Shown in pieces: positions 86 through 15,957 of a stretch of 24,669 nt of DNA. The notes below the pieces were generated by a model. It had not been told where the DNA came from, did no database searches, and was given only the letters and a program-made list of their open reading frames with translations. How positions within the stretch are numbered: the stretch's first letter is position 1; the number at the start of each line of letters is the position of its first letter. The DNA lies in contig JBEGVN010000051.1 in assembly GCA_041178325.1 (NCBI GenBank), positions 1 to 24,669 on the forward strand. The letters are read 5' to 3'. This stretch comes from Pseudomonadota bacterium. Its GTDB lineage: Bacteria > Pseudomonadota > Gammaproteobacteria > Methylococcales > Methylococcaceae. Position numbers and translations under genes: made by a program.

Positions 86-1615
86 ATGCACCGGATAACG
101 CGTGTTCACCATCACGCAAGAATAGGTGTTCACGATCGCAGGAATACGCACAAGAACAACTTGCCCAATTTCAGTGCCACCTTGAATGCGCTCCACATTG
201 AGTTCGAAAAGCACTCGAAGAAATACGAAAAAGATGGGGTCTCCAAGCTAACAGCCTTCATTTCAAATGCTGGTGGCGTTGTTGAGTTAGCAAAAACGGT
301 TCCCGCTGAAGATGATGACAGCAAGCTACCCCCCATCGACCGCGCAAAGCTGTTGGCTCTTACTGAAAGCATCCGCGAAATGTTACTCAAAGAGGCTGTA
401 GTCTGTAGTCGCGGGTCCCCACTTCCAGTCCTTCCGATCCAGCAGTATTTTTCGCTTGGCTACCAGAATCACAGCCTGCTTTTGGTCAACAAGACTGAAA
501 GGGGTGTTGGCTGGTTTTCTACATGCGCAAACCCCAAGCTCATACAGGAAGTGCTCGTAGATGCTGTGAGGCGACGATTTGATTTACAGCATCCTAAAGT
601 TCGGCCTTTGCTGGAGCTGATTCAGACCCAATCGCTGCCCAAGCATCTTGCTGGACTATCGGCTGGGCTCGTTGAAAAGCATGAGGTTGAGGGCTGGGGC
701 AAAACGAAATTCAAAGCAGAGCGCCGTGTTCTGTTCGTCAGGGATACAGGCGAATTTGTTTTAAGTCCGATGAACGCTCAGTCTGGCGTTGTCAGCATCG
801 TAAAGCCTGATGCGACCGGATTGCCACGTCAGCTTGATAAGCCATTCTTTGCTGATTGCGCACACGATGTTCTTGTTCTGCCAAGCGTATTAGAAAGCGT
901 TGAGGCGAACATGCTCCATGAGTTTGATTTCAACGTTTACGACGCGGGGCCACTTTCGAGCATTCCTAAGTACTCAGAAAGGAACAGCGCATCGCATTTG
1001 ATGAGATTCAAGCATCGAGCAGACAATTCTAAGAGCTTCAATGTTCCTTTCTGGCCGTGCTACGACACATTTGATCAGCCGCAATATCAGTTGATTAGGG
1101 ACCCGGACTACAAGGCCAAGCCGAAATGGAAAGCAAACTTGTCCGTTTTCTGGTTCCAACAGCTTGCGGATGTTTTCCTCGATAAGTGGCTGGCAGGGCA
1201 TGGAAAGCACCTCAAGCGTAAGCATCAATACACGCTTCGGCTGATATTTGATCGTGAGTCATTGGGCTTTGAGTTTGTGTATCGGGATGGTGAGTTTGAA
1301 AACTACGAACTGGACATCCCGCTGGAGTCATCAGCTACATGCTCAAGTGCGGTCGTTAGCCTTTTTGCGTCCAAGGACCTTGTTCCAGTTTTGCGGAGCA
1401 TCGCTTATCTTCAAGCAGATTCCAACATCGCACTTGAGCTGACTGATGACTTGTTACGGTTAAGTTTTACAACTGTTGGGCCGGGTGGCAGCAAGCATGA
1501 GATTTTGGTTCCAACGCTGGATGCTGAAGGCAATCGAGCAAGGGCGCCATTCATGCTTTACCAGCCAACTATCGTTGCTGATGAGTCCTCGCAGAAAGTT
1601 GAGGCCGAGGCGTGA
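86..1615 (+). CDS. Hypothetical 509-aa protein, upstream partner of the DpdA-like gene. I recognise no family. The C-terminal ~130 aa has a DnaN/sliding-clamp-domain-like sequence pattern. The start codon is uncertain.
   Basis: This is a long ORF whose TGA stop overlaps the GTG start of the next gene (GTGA at 1612-1615). There is no SD before ATG 86. The frame is open only from 65. The first ~25 codons overlap direct DNA repeats, so the true start may be downstream (for example in-frame TTG 161 or 182). Confidence 0.6.
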   Translation: MHRITRVHHHARIGVHDRRNTHKNNLPNFSATLNALHIEFEKHSKKYEKDGVSKLTAFISNAGGVVELAKTVPAEDDDSKLPPIDRAKLLALTESIREMLLKEAVVCSRGSPLPVLPIQQYFSLGYQNHSLLLVNKTERGVGWFSTCANPKLIQEVLVDAVRRRFDLQHPKVRPLLELIQTQSLPKHLAGLSAGLVEKHEVEGWGKTKFKAERRVLFVRDTGEFVLSPMNAQSGVVSIVKPDATGLPRQLDKPFFADCAHDVLVLPSVLESVEANMLHEFDFNVYDAGPLSSIPKYSERNSASHLMRFKHRADNSKSFNVPFWPCYDTFDQPQYQLIRDPDYKAKPKWKANLSVFWFQQLADVFLDKWLAGHGKHLKRKHQYTLRLIFDRESLGFEFVYRDGEFENYELDIPLESSATCSSAVVSLFASKDLVPVLRSIAYLQADSNIALELTDDLLRLSFTTVGPGGSKHEILVPTLDAEGNRARAPFMLYQPTIVADESSQKVEAEA

Positions 1616-2892
1616 AGAAGCCTGATTTTGCTGTCTACTTGCCCGCCGTTAATACGCTTTACGCGCAGGCTTTAACGGCTGAACTTCCAGCTAAAAGACC
1701 ATTTCCCAAGGGCTTATCGCTGAGCGATTTGGAATTTTGGAACGAGAGTGCTGGACGCAACCTCTGGCATTACCCGTACTTTCTCCATTCAGTTGGGCAG
1801 TACAAAGTAGGCGAACTTGCTGATAACGCCGTTACGCGAAGAGGTAGAACAGATGGCGTGATGGTCGGTGACAGTGGCGGTTTTCAGATTGGTAATGGAA
1901 ACCTAACTGGACTTGTTGGGCTTGAACCTCAAATGGACCCGGACGATGCTTGCGCTGCTTGGCGTGAGAATGTTGATGCGCGTCTTTGGATCATTAACTG
2001 GTTGGAAACTTACTCCAACTTCGCGATGACAATCGACATGCCACTGTGGGCGACTACGCAAGATGGCAAAAACTCACCCTTTCATCGTTGTAACCATGAG
2101 CAGCTGACCCAGCTTACTGTTGAAAATCTGCGCTTCATCGATAGTCATCGGCAGGGCAGAACAAAGTGGCTCAATGTCCTACAGGGCGCCACTACCGAAG
2201 CAATGGCAGATTGGTGGGATGCGGTTAAGTGGTTCAAGTGCTCCGGTTACGCAATGAGTAGCAGGGGAGCAAGAACAGCTGGAATTGAAGCCTTGCTGGT
2301 TCCTTTGTTATTGATGCGCGATCAGAAGGCATTTGACACTGGAAAGGACTGGATACACTTGCTTGGAGTCTCAACGGCTCCTTGGGCTGTGGTCCTGTCT
2401 GCGATTCAGTCGGCTTTGCGCTCTTCAGCCAATACAGAACTGACTATCAGCTTTGATAGTGCATCACCCTTTCAAGATGCCGGAATCAGGGAGCAGTACG
2501 TCACAAAACCGGATTTTCGAAATGATTTGAAAAGCTGGACGATACAAAAGTTCGAATGTCCGCAAAGTAGGCTTCATGTGGTGAGTGATGATCCTGTGCC
2601 TTTCAGTTCAGCCATCGCAGACAAGCTGACATTAGCGCATTTGAGCATCAAAGACGGTATGTACGAGCCAGGACAGTTCGACATCATTAGTCGTGCCCTG
2701 TTGTCGAACCACAATGTCAGGATTTATTTGGATTCCTTTGATGAGGCAAATTGGCTCGTTCAAAAAAAGTCACCGAAAGTGCCATCCATCATTTCAGAAG
2801 TAGTTGGCATGATTGATCGCGTATTTAAGGCTGAGTGTTGGAAGGATGCCCTTGCGAAAGAACCCAGCCATGCCAAGGCCTTCAGAGGGTAG
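1612..2892 (+). CDS. TGT-fold transglycosylase, DpdA-like (queuine/archaeosine tRNA-ribosyltransferase superfamily; candidate DNA base-exchange enzyme).
   Basis: The motifs appear in TGT order: VGDSGGFQ (Asp87, nt 1870-1872), AMTIDMP (Asp142, nt 2035-2037), LNVLQG, HLLGVS, and ISFDSASPF (Asp282, nt 2455-2457; this resembles the FDSA nucleophile motif of ArcTGT/DpdA). GAGG SD-like elements lie 2-12 nt upstream of GTG 1612. I see no canonical CxCxxC...H zinc motif and no PUA-like tail. Confidence 0.8.
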   Translation: MKKPDFAVYLPAVNTLYAQALTAELPAKRPFPKGLSLSDLEFWNESAGRNLWHYPYFLHSVGQYKVGELADNAVTRRGRTDGVMVGDSGGFQIGNGNLTGLVGLEPQMDPDDACAAWRENVDARLWIINWLETYSNFAMTIDMPLWATTQDGKNSPFHRCNHEQLTQLTVENLRFIDSHRQGRTKWLNVLQGATTEAMADWWDAVKWFKCSGYAMSSRGARTAGIEALLVPLLLMRDQKAFDTGKDWIHLLGVSTAPWAVVLSAIQSALRSSANTELTISFDSASPFQDAGIREQYVTKPDFRNDLKSWTIQKFECPQSRLHVVSDDPVPFSSAIADKLTLAHLSIKDGMYEPGQFDIISRALLSNHNVRIYLDSFDEANWLVQKKSPKVPSIISEVVGMIDRVFKAECWKDALAKEPSHAKAFRG

Positions 2893-2949
2893 CCCATTCG
2901 CTATTACTTAAATTCAGTAATAGCTATAGCAGTTCGACTGCTTGCTGGC

Positions 2950-3005
2950 CTACTGTACTAAGGACAAGCGACGATGGGCATATCAGGATATGATGCCGCA
3001 AATAT
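2950..3005 (-). pseudogene. Decayed 3' end of a tyrosine recombinase gene (remnant).
   Basis: The minus-strand translation reads ...GII S * Y A H R R L S L V Q *. This parallels ...GIHTIMSLSGHRRLSSVQEY of the intact recombinase at 4379-4951. The two share a 17-nt identical core with flanks matching at about half to two-thirds of positions. The remnant has in-frame TGA and TAG codons, and the TAG replaces the GAG just before the catalytic Tyr. Confidence 0.55.
2961..2977 (+). repeat. Left copy of a 17-bp perfect direct repeat, AGGACAAGCGACGATGG.
   Basis: It is identical to 4441-4457, at an offset of 1480 bp. It lies inside the recombinase remnant. Confidence 0.9.
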
Positions 3006-3105: not shown

Positions 3106-4356
3106 ATGCCATTCTCAAAAATTATTGTTCTTGCGACGCTTTCAGCGGGTTCATTACATGGGGGGCAGTGGATCCAGCAGTTAGAGCCTGGAGACTTTAA
3201 CAGAGATGGGGTAGTTGACTTCGTTTTCACGACTTCTCAAGAAGCAGGATTTAAGCCGGTTCAGCCGCGTTTCTATCTTGGAAATAAATCCAGAAAGTGG
3301 GTGGAGAGCACTCAGGCTCTATTCTCTGGGAGTGTTCCTCGAGTGTTCTACTTGTCAAGAATTTCTGTTAGTGACTTCAATAAAGATGGGGCAAGCGATG
3401 TTTTTGCCCCTGATAATGGCGCTGATGCTCCACCTTATCCTGGCGGTATGGACTACCTATGGATATCTTCAGTTGATAAAAAACTAGTTGATCAGTCACT
3501 GACACTACCGCAGATTCGGAAAGCTTCCCATGGTCTATCAGTTGGAGACATCAATCATGATGGATACAAAGACGTTGTAGTTAATAGCTTTGCATTAAAA
3601 GACCGTTCGTATGATGGCCATCCCACAGACTTTGTTTATCTGAATAACAAAGCTGGCGGATTCCTGGATATATCAGGTAGTGCGATACCTAAGAGAGTGG
3701 CTTGGGCTGGCGGTCACAGCGCGTCTGCGATTGGGGACTTTAATGGTGACGGGTGGGGTGACATATTCCTTGGAGCTATCATTAGTCCTACTCAACCTTA
3801 TGATAAAACGTCAAGAGTATTGATTAATAATGGCTATGGCGCCTTTGAGGATGACTTGGTTTATGACGTTCCTCCTCCTCCGGTAGCCGAGCCCCTAGTG
3901 GTTGAAGCGAAGTCTTTTGATTTAAATAATGATGGATATGATGACCTTCTCCTTTCTCACACAACTATTATAGGGGGTTCTTCAGGGCCTGGGTACGACA
4001 AGGGATATATTCAGATTCTTATTAGTGATGGAAAGGGCGGTTTCACAGATGAGACAAATCTTAGGTACCCGCAGGACCCTAACAAAAAGGGCTCTTGGTG
4101 GAAATTTATTCGCTTAGCAGACATAAATGGTGATGGGATTACTGATGTGTTTTTAACAGGGCAAGACACAAAGGTATCTGGGAAGGTTTTGATTAATGAT
4201 GGAAAGGGGTACTTCCAAGATAGGTTCACTCTAAGTAAATATGCGGAGTCTGGTACCACAATAGCTGATATTACTGGAGATGGTAGGCCAGAAATTGTCT
4301 GTATTGATGAGAAAGGAAAGGGTAGGATTATTGCGCTCGTAAATGATATCAGGTGA
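3106..4356 (+). CDS. Secreted FG-GAP/VCBS-repeat protein (seven-blade integrin-alpha-like beta-propeller).
   Basis: Seven spaced Dx[ND]xDGxxD calcium-loop motifs are present: DFNRDGVVD, DFNKDGASD, DINHDGYKD, DFNGDGWGD, DLNNDGYDD, DINGDGITD and DITGDGRPE. The N-terminus is hydrophobic and signal-like (MPFSKIIVLATLSAGSL). A GGAG SD sits 7 nt upstream. The gene is visibly more AT-rich than its neighbours. Confidence 0.85.
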   Translation: MPFSKIIVLATLSAGSLHGGQWIQQLEPGDFNRDGVVDFVFTTSQEAGFKPVQPRFYLGNKSRKWVESTQALFSGSVPRVFYLSRISVSDFNKDGASDVFAPDNGADAPPYPGGMDYLWISSVDKKLVDQSLTLPQIRKASHGLSVGDINHDGYKDVVVNSFALKDRSYDGHPTDFVYLNNKAGGFLDISGSAIPKRVAWAGGHSASAIGDFNGDGWGDIFLGAIISPTQPYDKTSRVLINNGYGAFEDDLVYDVPPPPVAEPLVVEAKSFDLNNDGYDDLLLSHTTIIGGSSGPGYDKGYIQILISDGKGGFTDETNLRYPQDPNKKGSWWKFIRLADINGDGITDVFLTGQDTKVSGKVLINDGKGYFQDRFTLSKYAESGTTIADITGDGRPEIVCIDEKGKGRIIALVNDIR

Positions 4357-4378: not shown

Positions 4379-4951
4379 TTAAAGTAACTCCACAGCCTGT
4401 CTTCTGTGCTCATCTGTCACACTCAAGTACTCTTGGACTGAGGACAAGCGACGATGGCCAGATAGCGACATGATTGTGTGAATGCCTACCGATTTGTTGG
4501 CAAGCGTTGTAATGAATTCCCTGCGAAAGCCGTGACTCGAGCAGCCATCCAAGCCCACTTCACGGAACAGTCGGCAGAAGAAACCAGAAATTCCATTCGC
4601 CGTAAATCCGCGCATTGAATTTTTCTGCGTGGGAAAAAGGCTCTGCTCGGGGCTTATGATCTTCATGCCCTCGATGTACGCGGCCAGCTCTTTACACAAT
4701 TTGGAATTGATCAAAACGGATCTGCCTGACTTGCCCTTGGTTTGCTGTGCTGTCAGGTAGATTTCGTTTTTGATTTGGCCTTGGGCGTCGACGACATCTT
4801 TGATTTTGAGCGAAGCGGCCTCACAAGCTCTTAGTCCCGCGTAGCGCATTGTGAAAATCAGCGCCTTGTTCCGGGCGGCATGGGGGCGGGTGGCAATATG
4901 GTCAAGTACGCGCCTCAACTCCTGCTTGGTCAAAATCCTCGCTTTCTTCAT
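4379..4951 (-). CDS. Short (190 aa) tyrosine recombinase of FimB/FimE size, consisting of the catalytic domain only.
   Basis: The catalytic signature is present: GLRACE (Arg I), HGFRREF (H-x-x-R) and GHRRLSSVQEY (His/Tyr175). The N-terminal PHAARN segment resembles FimB GPHAARN. A strong GGAGG SD sits 8 nt upstream of the ATG. Confidence 0.9.
   Translation of the reverse strand: MKKARILTKQELRRVLDHIATRPHAARNKALIFTMRYAGLRACEAASLKIKDVVDAQGQIKNEIYLTAQQTKGKSGRSVLINSKLCKELAAYIEGMKIISPEQSLFPTQKNSMRGFTANGISGFFCRLFREVGLDGCSSHGFRREFITTLANKSVGIHTIMSLSGHRRLSSVQEYLSVTDEHRRQAVELL
4441..4457 (+). repeat. Right copy of the 17-bp perfect direct repeat, AGGACAAGCGACGATGG.
   Basis: It is identical to 2961-2977. 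It lies inside the recombinase CDS, where the minus strand encodes HRRLS (His166-Ser170). Confidence 0.9.
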
Positions 4952-6182: not shown

Positions 6183-6626
6183 ATGAGCATTTTGAGTTCC
6201 CTGAAATTAGTCGCAGCGACCACGCAGCCGAAGGCAAATGGCATCCAGCGACAGCGTAATAAGTTGGCTGCGAAATTGGACGAGCAAATTGAAATGGCAT
6301 CGGCAAAACAATTGGGCGCCAACTACGCTCCGCGCATCGTTAAGTCCGTTACCAATCCAGCAACTGAGCAACGTGTCCAAGTCGAAGCGTACAAACGAGT
6401 GCGTCCGTGGTTTTGGGTGTCGGCTGCTGGGGGCTACTGCTTGAATATTCGGTATGGCAGCAAGGTGATTGAACTGGCCAAGGGCAAAAACGCCATTGAA
6501 GCAGCCGATCTGAAGACGCTCATCGAAGCATTAGGAACGGTCAAAAGCGCGGTACTGGCAGGGGAGCTGGATGCTGAAATTGAAAAAGCATCGGGCGCAC
6601 TTCGATCTGGATTCGGTAAGAAGTAG
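6183..6626 (+). CDS. Hypothetical protein (147 aa).
   Basis: It is a clean ORF with a GAGGA SD about 6 nt upstream of the ATG. Codon first positions are G-rich, which is typical of coding sequence. I recognise no family. Confidence 0.6.
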   Translation: MSILSSLKLVAATTQPKANGIQRQRNKLAAKLDEQIEMASAKQLGANYAPRIVKSVTNPATEQRVQVEAYKRVRPWFWVSAAGGYCLNIRYGSKVIELAKGKNAIEAADLKTLIEALGTVKSAVLAGELDAEIEKASGALRSGFGKK

Positions 6627-6678: not shown

Positions 6679-7083
6679 ATGCGCCTTGCCGAATTTTCCT
6701 CTGCCCAAGATCAGTTGGCTCTGTGGAAGCTCATCAGCGATACCGTTTGGTCCAGCATCAATGCCCAAGCCAAGCAGCAAGCCCAAGTCGCGGCTCAACA
6801 AAAGCGCATCGTAAAGCCCAAGACGAAAGTAGCCAGCAAGGTCAAAATCCCACGGCCACCAGCACCTAAGCCTTTACCTCAACCCAAGCCCTTGTATCAG
6901 GCAAAAGCAAAACCCATCAAGCCGGCCCCGACGAAAGTTGACCCCGCATCAAAGCGTCTGCCGAGCCAATTGACAGCAAAACCACCGAATCCCAGTACAG
7001 CAAAAATGGACACGGGCGTGGTGCCGAGGGGCATAGCGACAATGAATGCCCTAGCCAATCCCGCTATTACTGAAAATAAGTAA
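6679..7083 (+). CDS. Hypothetical protein (134 aa) with a Pro/Lys/Ala-rich, low-complexity C-terminal half.
   Basis: I chose the internal ATG 6679, which has GGAG about 12 nt upstream, rather than the track start 6571, which overlaps the previous gene. The C-terminal half consists of PKP/KPxP repeats. Confidence 0.5.
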   Translation: MRLAEFSSAQDQLALWKLISDTVWSSINAQAKQQAQVAAQQKRIVKPKTKVASKVKIPRPPAPKPLPQPKPLYQAKAKPIKPAPTKVDPASKRLPSQLTAKPPNPSTAKMDTGVVPRGIATMNALANPAITENK

Positions 7084-7099
7084 TAACTTTTCGACAAGA

Positions 7100-13388: not shown

Positions 13389-13654
13389 GTCAGTTTCCTT
13401 GATTTGAGATTCGATAGCGTACCGGCTGTGTTCAATGAAGCCACCCTTAGCGGAAGGTGCTCGAAATGACTTAACCGGCGATCAAATTATAGGGGGTGCT
13501 ATTCGCCATGATCTTGACCGATCTTAACAATGGGTGAATCAGACCTGAAGCACTAGGCGGAGCTTATGGCTGCCCGGTTCGATGCGCAATAAGCTAAATC
13601 CCCTTTGGCCAAAATGGTTGAAAAAAAAGGGAAGGGATTCATAATGCCTTGCAT

Positions 13655-13865
13655 ATCCAGGTGCCTGACCGTCGTTCGTCCGCGTCAGGTTAAACGGGAA
13701 GCTGGTGATGTTCCGTCCCAACGGAAAGAAGTCCAGCGCTGCCCCCGCAACGGTAGGTGAGTTAAAGCGCATCAAAATGCCACTGTGTCTGTGACATGGG
13801 AAGGCGGTGCGTTTGGCCACTCTTAATTAAGAGAGGGCTGCTCACAAGTCCGGAGACCGGCCTCG
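13655..13865 (+). promoter_or_regulatory. Cobalamin (B12) riboswitch upstream of the TonB-dependent receptor.
   Basis: The conserved blocks appear in order: AAACGGGAAGCTGGTGA, GCTGCCCCCGCAACGGTA (13738-13755), GCCACTG (13779-13785), GGGAAGGC (13798-13805), and the B12 box AGTCCGGAGACCGGCC (13847-13862). The boundaries are approximate. Confidence 0.8.
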
Positions 13866-14010
13866 ATATTGTCAGCCGTCGCGGTGGGCGATGGGTAGGC
13901 TGTTGCCCCCATGTCCTTCTCGGAATCAGGTTTCAGGCTATCCATTTTCATTGCACGGTTTTTGCCACTGCTGCGAGCGGGTGTTGCCGCGGCTTGACCA
14001 GAATCTGAGA

Positions 14011-15957
14011 ATGAAAAAAAAGCTGCTCTTTACTCTGTCCGTTTTTGTCCCTTTGCTTGCTCAAGCCGAGAGCGATTCCACCGATACATTGGATCCTGTA
14101 GTCATCACAGCGACGCGAAGTGATGTCAGAGAGTCCAATTTAGCCAACACCGTGACAGTGATTACGGCGGCAGAAATCAAAGCCCGAAGAATCAATGCCG
14201 TAGCCGATATTCTCCGGGTCGTTCCTGGGCTTGATGTGATGAGTTCGGGGGGGACAGGGCAGCAAACCTCCGTATTTACGCGAGGTGCTAATTCCAACCA
14301 AACCTTGGTGCTAATCGATAATATTCGGATGAACGATCCGAGTAATCCCAACAATTCCTTTGACTTTGCCAACCTGCAGGTTGATGACATTGAGCGCATC
14401 GAGGTTCTGAGGGGGGCAGCCAGTGCCATGTGGGGGGCTGATGCCATGGGCGGTGTGATTCACATCATCACCAAGCATGGAAAAGGACCGACCCAGTTCT
14501 CAGGACTGGCCGAGGGTGGCAACTACAACACTTGGAAAGTCGGTGGTGGGGTTTCGGGTGAGGTCGACCGATTGAATTACGCGGTCAATGCCAGCCACTT
14601 GAGCAATCTTGGAGTCTCAGCAGCGGCCCAGTCGATGGGAAATAGCGAGCGAGATCCCTACCAGAACACCACGCTTCAAAGTCGGTTCAACTATCAGGTG
14701 ACGGATACCCTCGATCTGGATTGGAGTCTGCGCTACAACGCCGCAGGGACAGGCCTCGACAACTGTGGTGGGTTTGGCTACAAGTCTTACACGGGGCAGT
14801 TTGTTCGCTGCGACAATCCCCATTACTTCAACAATAGCAATCAGCTTTACACCCGGGGTCAGGCCCGCTGGTTTTTATTTGATAATCTCTGGGAACAACG
14901 CTTTGGGGTGAACTTCACGCTGAGTGATCGTCAGACCTACTACACCGCACCGATCTCACCCGACTGGATTCCTCCCACATCCACCAATGGCCAGGAAACT
15001 AAAGTCGAGTGGTTGAATTTTATTCATGTTCTTCCAAATGACACCATCACCGCGGGGGTTGAGGGACGGTTCGATACGATGTACAGCGAAAGCGGTTTGG
15101 CTTCAGCGCAGACTAGCAACAATGGATCGATGAATAACGCTGGGTACTATCTGCAGAATCAACTCGACTGGCTGGATCGTTTTCATACGACCGCCGGGGG
15201 TCGTGTGGACGACAACTCTCAGTTTGGAAGTCATCTCACCTGGCGTTTCAATCAGACCGTGGATGTGTCGGAACTGGATAGCCGGATCAAGGCCAACATT
15301 GGCACCGCCTTTCGCGCTCCATCTCTGTGTGAACTCAGCAAGCAATGCTTTGGTAATCCAAATTTGATGCCTGAGACGAGTCTTGACTGGGATGCGGGAA
15401 TAGAGCAGGACCTTTTCGATAAAAAAGCCATGCTTGGGTTGGTGTATTTCGACAATAACTACAACAACCTCATCCAGTGGAATCCCAGCGCCAACGGAGG
15501 GATGGGGAATGTCGAAAATGTGAGTAACGCGATTGCCCGGGGTATTGAGACCTTTGCAGAGTACAAACCTTTGCCCGAGTTGGCCTTAAGGCTCAACTAC
15601 ACCTATGACGAGACATTTGGGCGCTACAACGCCACGACTGGGCAAAGATCAAATGACCCCTTATTACTTCGGCCTAAAAACAAGGGAAACTTTGACCTTG
15701 ATTACAAGTTTGTTCCGGAAGCCTCCGCACACCTCAATGTTCTCGTAGTGGGCTCAAGGAGCTCCTACGATACGATGGGTTCGATCACCCAAGTGCCGGG
15801 GTATGTTCTCGTGAATCTTTCTACAAACTATGAGATCAATAAGCAGGTGACTGTCTTCGCAAGGCTCGACAATCTCCTCAACAAACAATATCAGCAGGTT
15901 TGGGGATATGGCGCACTCGGTTTTTACGGACTGAGTGGCTTTTCGGTGAAATTTTAG
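14011..15957 (+). CDS. btuB: TonB-dependent outer-membrane receptor, BtuB-like (cobalamin/vitamin B12 transporter).
   Basis: The signal peptide is MKKKLLFTLSVFVPLLAQA. There is a TonB box (DTLDPVVITATR), a plug motif (IEVLRGAASAMWGADAMGGVIHIITK) and a C-terminal Phe. The gene is directly preceded by the B12 riboswitch. The track start at 13891 overlaps the leader and I reject it. Confidence 0.85.
   Translation: MKKKLLFTLSVFVPLLAQAESDSTDTLDPVVITATRSDVRESNLANTVTVITAAEIKARRINAVADILRVVPGLDVMSSGGTGQQTSVFTRGANSNQTLVLIDNIRMNDPSNPNNSFDFANLQVDDIERIEVLRGAASAMWGADAMGGVIHIITKHGKGPTQFSGLAEGGNYNTWKVGGGVSGEVDRLNYAVNASHLSNLGVSAAAQSMGNSERDPYQNTTLQSRFNYQVTDTLDLDWSLRYNAAGTGLDNCGGFGYKSYTGQFVRCDNPHYFNNSNQLYTRGQARWFLFDNLWEQRFGVNFTLSDRQTYYTAPISPDWIPPTSTNGQETKVEWLNFIHVLPNDTITAGVEGRFDTMYSESGLASAQTSNNGSMNNAGYYLQNQLDWLDRFHTTAGGRVDDNSQFGSHLTWRFNQTVDVSELDSRIKANIGTAFRAPSLCELSKQCFGNPNLMPETSLDWDAGIEQDLFDKKAMLGLVYFDNNYNNLIQWNPSANGGMGNVENVSNAIARGIETFAEYKPLPELALRLNYTYDETFGRYNATTGQRSNDPLLLRPKNKGNFDLDYKFVPEASAHLNVLVVGSRSSYDTMGSITQVPGYVLVNLSTNYEINKQVTVFARLDNLLNKQYQQVWGYGALGFYGLSGFSVKF

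Follow-up and report, generated by a model that had tools for sequence, protein, structure and literature searches.

Enzymes of the DpdA kind, which write 7-deazaguanines into DNA and have the fold of the tRNA-guanine transglycosylases (TGTs), are known from bacteria and from phages. In Salmonella Montevideo, DpdA (structure 7UI4) is a triosephosphate isomerase (TIM) barrel with three active-site aspartates, encoded on an island with a partner and the dpdC–K genes and presumably fed with host preQ0; it requires that partner, the ParB-like ATPase DpdB, and the zinc site CXCX2CX22H is conserved in TGTs and bacterial DpdA alike (PMC10164549). Phages encode DpdA1 to DpdA4 (9g, nt-1, Cellulophaga phiST and HVTV-1), of which DpdA2 of nt-1 inserts preQ0 into DNA in E. 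coli (PMC10516641). Here we analyse a 24,669-nucleotide (nt) stretch of contig JBEGVN010000051.1 from a bacterium of the Methylococcaceae (hereafter the window), near whose start an open reading frame (ORF) of 509 residues (86..1615, forward strand, ATG start) is followed by one of 426 residues (1612..2892, forward strand, GTG start). The reading that we favour, at a probability of about one half, is that this gene pair encodes a DNA guanine/7-deazaguanine transglycosylase that works tethered to a clamp, as a variant of the DpdA type.

Results

The downstream gene encodes a divergent TGT-superfamily enzyme

The two ORFs are joined by a 4-nt GTGA overlap, in which the GTG start codon of the enzyme gene (1612–1614) runs into the TGA stop codon of the partner gene (1613–1615), and a GAGG lies 7 nt 5' of the GTG; an earlier annotation made from the letters of the stretch (the sequence-only reading) had pointed to this overlap, and the ORF coordinates and the sequence bear it out. 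The same reading had placed the 426-residue protein in the TGT superfamily, with a triad of catalytic aspartates, and this placement is upheld both by fold matches and by alignment of the motifs with E. coli Tgt.

All of the TGT-type motifs that had been named, GDSGGFQ, IDMP, LQG, LLGVS and FDSAS, are present. A profile of 240 sequences (162 island-type, 78 phage-type) aligned by hhalign over nearly the full length of E. coli Tgt with all five motifs paired in the same order and at nearly the same spacing (E = 0.0027, probability 11%): D87 of GDSGGFQ (codon 1870–1872, forward strand, as are those that follow), the predicted general acid/base, with D89; D142 of IDMP (2035–2037), the predicted base-recognition aspartate, with D143; Q191 of NVLQG (2182–2184) with the IIQG motif; LLGVS with LMGVG; and D282 of FDSAS (2455–2457), the predicted nucleophile, with D264. 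The three aspartates are invariant in an alignment of 42 homologues and at least 99% conserved over all 240 sequences, and together with Q191 they are at least 97% conserved within each clade. A narrower profile (A1) set against single sequences gave one short, non-significant stretch each, covering GDSGGFQ in the case of E. coli Tgt and residues 156–205 in the case of 9g DpdA. A collection of diverse Tgt sequences from viral contigs yielded only 3 near-identical loci.

An AlphaFold (AF2) model of the enzyme, built from 42 sequences, is an alternating strand/helix TIM barrel (predicted local distance difference test, pLDDT, 93.7; predicted template modelling score, pTM, 0.92), in which D87, D142 and D282 sit at or just after strands 83–87, 137–139 and 278–283. 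Foldseek against the PDB returned human QTRT1 (6h42_A, E = 6.9e-8) as the sole match below 1e-3; the other matches listed all had E ≥ 3e-3, and those inspected were unrelated (β/α)-barrel enzymes such as GH10 xylanases. Among the predicted viral structures of BFVD, 18 fold matches reached E ≤ 1e-3, headed by two uncharacterised phage proteins (TM-score up to 0.81) and including proteins annotated as TGT or queuine tRNA-ribosyltransferase from Achromobacter phage Motura and from Arthrobacter, Mycobacterium and Dinoroseobacter phages. Also among them were M4SLA5 of Cellulophaga phage phiST and R9TGF0 of Vibrio phage nt-1 (E = 1.3e-8, TM-score 0.45), which is probably the nt-1 DpdA2.

The enzyme lacks two hallmarks of classical TGTs, as the sequence-only reading had stated: there is no conserved Cys cluster in either clade of the 240-sequence alignment that could form a CxCxxC...H zinc site, the only Cys or His columns at least 80% conserved in either clade being C160, H249, H367, H158 (island clade only) and two phage-clade-specific His, and Pfam finds no PUA domain. 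Neither Pfam (E ≤ 1), including the TGT model PF01702, nor NCBIfam, PADLOC or PHROGs matched the protein. A homologue search recovered 959 homologues (about 960 clusters at 90% identity), all of them unnamed; one, P0001 (P-numbers denote homologous proteins, L-numbers related loci), is 96% identical. We conclude that the 426-residue protein is a real but highly divergent, zinc-less member of the TGT/DpdA superfamily. A housekeeping tRNA-TGT, the identity that the sequence-only reading had set against its own, was rejected on the missing PF01702 and NCBIfam matches, the missing zinc site, the location on an island and the presence of up to two copies per genome.

Compared with the described systems, the enzyme shares with bacterial DpdA the TGT-fold barrel, the three aspartates, the island setting, the co-encoded partner and, presumably, a supply from the preQ0 pathway of the host, but has no detectable sequence similarity to it (no match in PADLOC or NCBIfam), and only DpdA has the zinc site. 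With phage DpdA1–DpdA4 it shares fold-level matches and a DNA-metabolism context; it differs in sequence, the 240-sequence profile reaching a 14-sequence DpdA1 profile only at E = 0.043 (probability 1.2%) and tblastn of the window protein reaching none of the named DpdA phages (at E ≤ 1e-3 in the case of nt-1), and in length, at 426–550 residues in this family against 317 in 9g DpdA. None of the DpdA papers searched names this family.

Phage relatives lie in a DNA replication module

The best functional clue to the enzyme comes from a phage sister clade. Its members, about 514 residues long and 26–35% identical to the enzyme, are encoded on at least 593 viral contigs. In the best 80 of these loci, for which neighbourhoods were counted, the gene order is family-B DNA polymerase (PolB; about 889 residues), a 245-residue gene (present in 77 of the 80), the TGT-like gene and several genes of no assigned function, with a GTP cyclohydrolase I (FolE) gene (Pfam E = 1.6e-39) within a few kilobases in 43 of them. 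We considered a 131-residue phage neighbour as QueD and dropped this assignment, which had no Pfam support.

Cultured phages with a relative are the Pseudomonas jumbo phage PA5oct group (gp168), Sinorhizobium phage Phosso and a Vibrio phage. The gp168-type proteins are true homologues, 24–35% identical over more than 90% of the length and with the same invariant residues, and a clamp-annotated gene precedes each, as a clamp-like gene does in the window; in PA5oct, gp168 comes directly after the 245-residue homologue gp170 in this sense, and 3 kb downstream there is a QueE-like gene. They differ from the island enzyme in their acidic C-terminal tail of about 90 residues, and in lying beside PolB, FolE and QueE-like genes, whereas the island pair has no deazaguanine synthesis genes. 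Enzymes with G in their cleavage sites fail to cut PA5oct DNA readily, and the authors of that study infer a modified G (PMC12191111); the phage is also reported to have a deazaguanine synthesis and incorporation system (PMC7824862); as the latter report suggests for PA5oct, the phage clade may already have been flagged computationally.

The 245-residue phage protein matched nothing in the libraries, and its profile matched no PDB sequence; depositors have labelled it 'proliferating cell nuclear antigen' (phage PAC2) and 'sliding clamp beta' (phage Phosso). By hhalign its profile runs collinear, though weakly, with the clamp-like part of the island partner described below (E = 0.0017, probability 15%). 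The phage enzymes would use this separate 245-residue protein; the island version has a partner of its own, of 550–680 residues and with an extra N-terminal region.

The partner is predicted to carry a PCNA-like fold

The sequence-only reading had called the 509-residue ORF an orphan, a view that does not stand: it belongs to a conserved family, for which an exhaustive profile search gave 425 representatives at 50% identity, typically 550–680 residues long (a second, word-indexed search with the partner alignment added no further sequences). Most homologues found have 567–683 residues, including a conserved N-terminal stretch of about 85 residues that the window copy lacks; only residues ~22–509 of the ORF are homologous to the family. 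Pfam, NCBIfam, PADLOC and PHROGs gave no useful match.

The fold was examined on P0122, a full-length homologue that is 70% identical to the window partner. Its AF2 model has an overall pLDDT of 73.6, with block means mostly between 76 and 95 over residues 225–565, and Foldseek of this model against the PDB gave 252 matches at E ≤ 1e-3; all 50 listed were PCNA or 9-1-1 clamps, with target-normalised TM-scores of 0.51–0.63. By the alignment offset, the matching region corresponds to window residues ~159–499 (560..1582, forward strand). The model thus predicts that the C-terminal ~340 residues of the partner fold like PCNA, with the two-domain architecture seen in PCNA, gp45 and 9-1-1 clamps. 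Differences from those clamps are the lack of sequence similarity, the additional ~220 N-terminal residues and the bacterial origin of the gene, with no clamp loader encoded nearby. A reading of the family consensus, with no motif search aimed at it, showed no evident Walker A motif or P-loop, in contrast to the ParB-like ATPase DpdB. The bacterial replicative clamp is the β clamp.

Candidate clamp-docking peptides

In the acidic tails of the phage TGT-like proteins there is a motif, for instance NTFGSLFEVEE, that reproduces the very C-terminal end of the polymerase encoded nearby (such as NTFNKLFDFE). Of the 78 phage TGT-like proteins, 63 have the pattern [FY]xx[LIMF]F within their last 80 residues, and of 66 PolB, 62 have it within their last 12, against 3.4% of 525 background phage ORFs and 1 of 392 windows taken from the TGT-like bodies; the stricter Nx[FY]xx[LIMF]F is found in 45 of the 78, in 53 of the 66 polymerases and in none of the 525. 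In polymerases of the T4/RB69 type the C-terminal peptide binds the sliding clamp, and by analogy this resemblance suggests that the phage relatives dock on the phage sliding clamp through a polymerase-like peptide.

In the gammaproteobacterial subclade the island enzymes have [LI][LIF]xxF[KT]G at their C-terminus; its local form, AKAFRG (2872..2889, forward strand), is by the same analogy a candidate docking peptide for the clamp-like partner. A comparable arrangement is seen in phage 9g (L065, 3007–3960), whose validated dpdA adjoins a gene annotated as 'replicative clamp': 9g DpdA and 13 relatives, down to 40% identity (loci L146–L162), have QxLF or one of its near variants (PGLF, QGFF) at the C-terminus, which resembles the bacterial β-clamp-binding motif. 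Judging from these tails, known phage DpdAs may be clamp-tethered too.

The pair belongs to the backbone of an island family

A scan of reference sequences, one genome per species, found 55 related loci, mostly in aquatic Pseudomonadota (Pseudohongiella, Limnohabitans, Polynucleobacter, Rhodobacteraceae); with metagenome-derived loci these make up 58 non-redundant loci. In 47 of the 58 the partner gene lies directly upstream of the enzyme gene on the same strand, and the pairing holds at every locus with at least 31% identity and available upstream sequence, so that the co-occurrence survey proposed by the sequence-only reading comes out as conservation of the two genes together in island-type loci. 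At L029, L030 and L034 (betaproteobacterial or Flavobacteriales) about 600 nt separate the two genes, with no overlap.

No companion of the pair is better conserved than a short tyrosine recombinase made up of the catalytic domain alone (4379..4951, reverse strand, 190 residues; Pfam Phage_integrase, E = 4e-26 over residues 6–182), found in 50 related loci at about 190–240 residues; a DUF6641 protein gene (6183..6626, forward strand; Pfam E = 1.9e-11) recurs in 31. By reading, the R-K-H-R-H-Y residues of the recombinase are intact, and its orientation relative to the pair varies among relatives. Full-length integrases and tRNA genes flank the related islands (Phe five times; also Ser, Cys, Met, Leu, Ala and Thr), and the variable neighbours include SIR2-HerA, a ThiF/ubiquitin-like set, M78 with helix-turn-helix (HTH) genes and a mer operon. 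Because the pair travels with the short tyrosine recombinase and the DUF6641 gene, it is part of the backbone of a tRNA-integrating island family and not, as the sequence-only reading had it, lone cargo.

Some genomes hold two copies of the pair at separate sites (L009/L011 in OZ253535.1, L010/L033 in OZ254078.1, L026/L039 and L028/L029), and in the Pseudohongiella genomes a short and a long integrase accompany each copy, which fits the presence of several related islands in one genome.

In the window, Pfam, run on most listed ORFs of at least 100 residues, matched no que, folE, ParB or helicase among those submitted, and neither dpdC, nor dpdD–K helicase or nuclease, nor que genes occur there or among the conserved neighbours of the 58 loci or in their Pfam-annotated contexts. 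The absence of the usual Dpd and Que partners that the sequence-only reading had remarked on thus extends to the relatives, the 47 loci with the pair having no conserved dpdB–K or que neighbours. The missing que genes are weak evidence; bacterial DpdA reportedly also draws on the host queuosine pathway.

The window copy is truncated and rearranged

Homology of the window to L167, L168 and L164 begins by blastn at nt 150–152, nt 150 being codon 88 of the full-length partner gene, and nt 1–149 are unrelated to the partner gene of the relatives, replacing its first ~87 codons and the promoter region; an in-frame stop lies upstream of the ORF at nt 44–46. Because the homology starts there and the stop precedes it, we read the partner gene as 5'-truncated by about 87 codons and the first ~22 residues of the called ORF as fortuitous. 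A second assembly of the same sequence, L001, also has nt 122–149.

Downstream of the pair, an FG-GAP repeat protein gene that is not part of the module (3106..4356, forward strand; Pfam FG-GAP_3, E = 4e-36; G+C about 0.43) sits between the enzyme and short recombinase genes, which are adjacent in L164 and L167; apart from L001, none of the other loci searched has it. It is flanked by a 41-nt direct repeat (80% identity; 2933–2994 against 4434–4474), whose first copy lies in the decayed 3' end left over from a short-integrase gene (2933..2994, reverse strand; tblastn IIS*YAHRRLSLVQ against residues 160–173 of the 190-residue recombinase). The repeat and the remnant point to a past insertion or recombination between two elements here.

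Because the partner has lost its first ~87 codons, the window copy may be impaired, and the alternative that fares best is that it is a decaying, non-working remnant, whatever the family does elsewhere. We regard this as possible, and as less probable than the reading given at the outset. The truncation, the unrelated sequence upstream, the integrase remnant and the inserted low-G+C gene all speak for it; no sigma-70-like promoter was matched upstream of the pair in the window, and such decay does occur, since in a close relative, L165 (1–1400), IS66-family genes occupy the partner position and the enzyme and short recombinase are left without a partner. On the other side, the enzyme ORF is intact with every family-invariant residue kept, the truncated partner retains its whole PCNA-like region, an open frame and the coupled stop and start, the 96%-identical enzyme P0001 exists elsewhere, and a promoter may lie further upstream, the window starting near the contig end.

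Discussion

A proposed clamp-tethered transglycosylase

In the reading that we favour, the enzyme most likely acts on DNA. It would remove guanine through a covalent Asp282–deoxyribose intermediate; Asp87 would serve as acid/base, and Asp142 and Gln191 would recognise the guanine edge. The enzyme would then insert a host-made 7-deazaguanine base such as preQ0 or preQ1. Its obligate partner would be the upstream PCNA-like protein instead of the ParB-like DpdB: the partner would hold or slide on DNA, and the enzyme would dock to it through its C-terminal peptide. The benefit might be a DNA mark that shields the element or host from restriction, or that allows self to be told from non-self. A phage origin of the island pair is possible. 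ParB proteins are nucleotide-gated DNA clamps, and bacterial DpdA needs the ParB-like DpdB; an unrelated protein of clamp-like fold in that place thus makes sense as a variant of a scheme already known. The sequence-only reading had suggested a base-exchange module of a different mechanism, and for DNA this describes the pair fairly.

Several results weigh against this reading. For the enzyme, neither Pfam with PF01702 nor single-sequence and profile searches of PDB sequences give a link to the TGTs, the hhalign comparison with Tgt assigns one a probability of only 11%, the first 50 PDB fold matches of the model do not include 7UI4, the structure of Salmonella DpdA, and the zinc site of TGTs and bacterial DpdA is missing. 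For the partner, the PCNA-like fold comes from one homologue model built from 16 sequences (at the pLDDT of 73.6 given above), a profile search of PDB sequences found no clamp, the similarity to the 245-residue phage protein is weak at 15% probability, and the local gene is truncated. The tail motif of the island enzymes differs between subclades and is degenerate in the window. In addition, the islands contain no 7-deazaguanine synthesis genes, and the pair has no conserved neighbour that could be a restriction or nuclease partner, so that the biological role proposed here is a guess.

If the reading is true, the family extends the known writers of 7-deazaguanines in DNA by a large branch that lacks annotation, at a scale of about 960 clusters at 90% identity, 55 reference-genome loci and at least 593 phage contigs, and supplies a candidate for the missing transglycosylase of PA5oct-type jumbo phages with reported modified G. 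Riding on a sliding clamp would answer how a base-flipping exchange enzyme finds its sites on double-stranded DNA, and would rationalise the need of bacterial DpdA for its ParB-like partner; the partner family would be one of bacterial PCNA-fold proteins outside replication, an unusual bacterial relative of PCNA. Such DNA marks influence restriction, CRISPR cutting and the sequencing of environmental DNA, and a compact two-gene writer would be a useful tool. More tentatively, DNA-guanine transglycosylases might be clamp-coupled in general, a wider proposal that we hold with clearly less confidence than the reading of the pair itself: this family through a PCNA fold (the replisome clamp in phages, a dedicated protein in islands), DpdA1 through its QxLF β-clamp peptide and bacterial DpdA through DpdB, with the island pair as a minimal, self-contained 7-deazaguanine-marking module that is related to the phage genes and has spread in the backbone of tRNA-integrating islands. 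The searchable literature, which leaves aside Iyer et al. 2013 and the supplementary tables of the DpdA papers, holds no description of the island pair, of a PCNA-like TGT partner or of clamp-binding peptides on DpdA-type enzymes.

Other roles for the pair

A clamp-guided enzyme that starts like a transglycosylase might instead stop at excision: as a DNA glycosylase-type defence effector, it would scan incoming DNA, remove modified (7-deazaguanine) or ordinary guanines and leave abasic sites that kill phage DNA. TGT chemistry does start with base excision through a covalent intermediate (PMC10164549), glycosylases that defend against 7-deazaguanine phages exist in Dag1 and Dag2 (bioRxiv 10.1101/2025.10.29.685425), and the SIR2-HerA, ThiF/ubiquitin-like and M78 with HTH genes that adjoin the pair in related islands are defence cargo. 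We nevertheless consider this role unlikely: the closest relatives reside in phage genomes beside FolE and QueE-like genes, which fits base insertion and not defence; the guanine-reading D142 and Q191 are retained, as in exchange enzymes; PADLOC matches neither protein; and the pair is island backbone, not variable cargo.

The island itself offers another role, in which the pair would serve the life cycle of the element by processing or marking its excised form for recombination, replication or transfer, together with the short recombinase and a set of palindromes. A 25-nt palindrome of 9-7-9 form, GCTATTACT-N7-AGTAATAGC, occupies 2900..2924, starting 8 nt after the enzyme stop codon, and a second copy of the same site lies at 7063..7087. 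In distant relatives, even at only 56% protein identity, the palindrome follows the enzyme stop by 18–19 nt, and in L013 and L164 it is also found about 38 nt upstream of the partner gene, so that it brackets the pair (positions ~6162 and ~9289 in L013, 1847 and 4891 in L164; single positions are 11301 in L002 and 9282 in L009). Related loci totalling 0.8 Mb contain 11 matches, where shuffled sequences predict 0.2. The palindrome looks like a tyrosine-recombinase core site; it could be an operator or a terminator.

The tight link to the recombinase adds to this case, the latter being 88–89% identical to its counterparts in L164 and L167 where the enzyme is 72% and the partner 66–69% identical; integrase-family ORFs lie within 6.5 kb of the pair, on either strand, in 41 of the 58 loci, and two copies in some genomes are what mobile backbones have. 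Against it, TGT-fold enzymes are not known to act in any recombination or replication system, the loci of the phage relatives lack such a recombinase, the palindrome could be a mere terminator or operator, and the linkage is explained equally well by a modification module acting as the element's anti-restriction function. A life-cycle role thus seems about as improbable to us as the defence glycosylase.

Least probable of all is that the enzyme modifies RNA (tRNA or other) like classical TGTs, with the partner a scaffold that merely resembles PCNA: QTRT1, the best PDB fold match, is a tRNA enzyme, and the FDCA nucleophile motif of the phage clade and the QG motif are closer to bacterial Tgt than to bacterial DpdA, but the enzyme has neither a PUA domain nor a zinc subdomain and matches no tRNA-TGT model, its gene is island-borne and sometimes duplicated, the partner has a predicted DNA-clamp fold, and the phage relatives sit in a DNA replication module and bear a polymerase-like clamp peptide.

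Other features of the window

The sequence-only reading had placed the island at a tRNA-Gln gene. We rejected this attachment site for the window, in which neither ARAGORN nor Rfam, at gathering score and at E ≤ 1, finds a tRNA gene or fragment. Outside the island, a cobalamin riboswitch (13642–13879; Rfam 106.6 bits) lies directly 5' of a TonB-dependent receptor gene (13891–15957), an ordinary BtuB-type arrangement.

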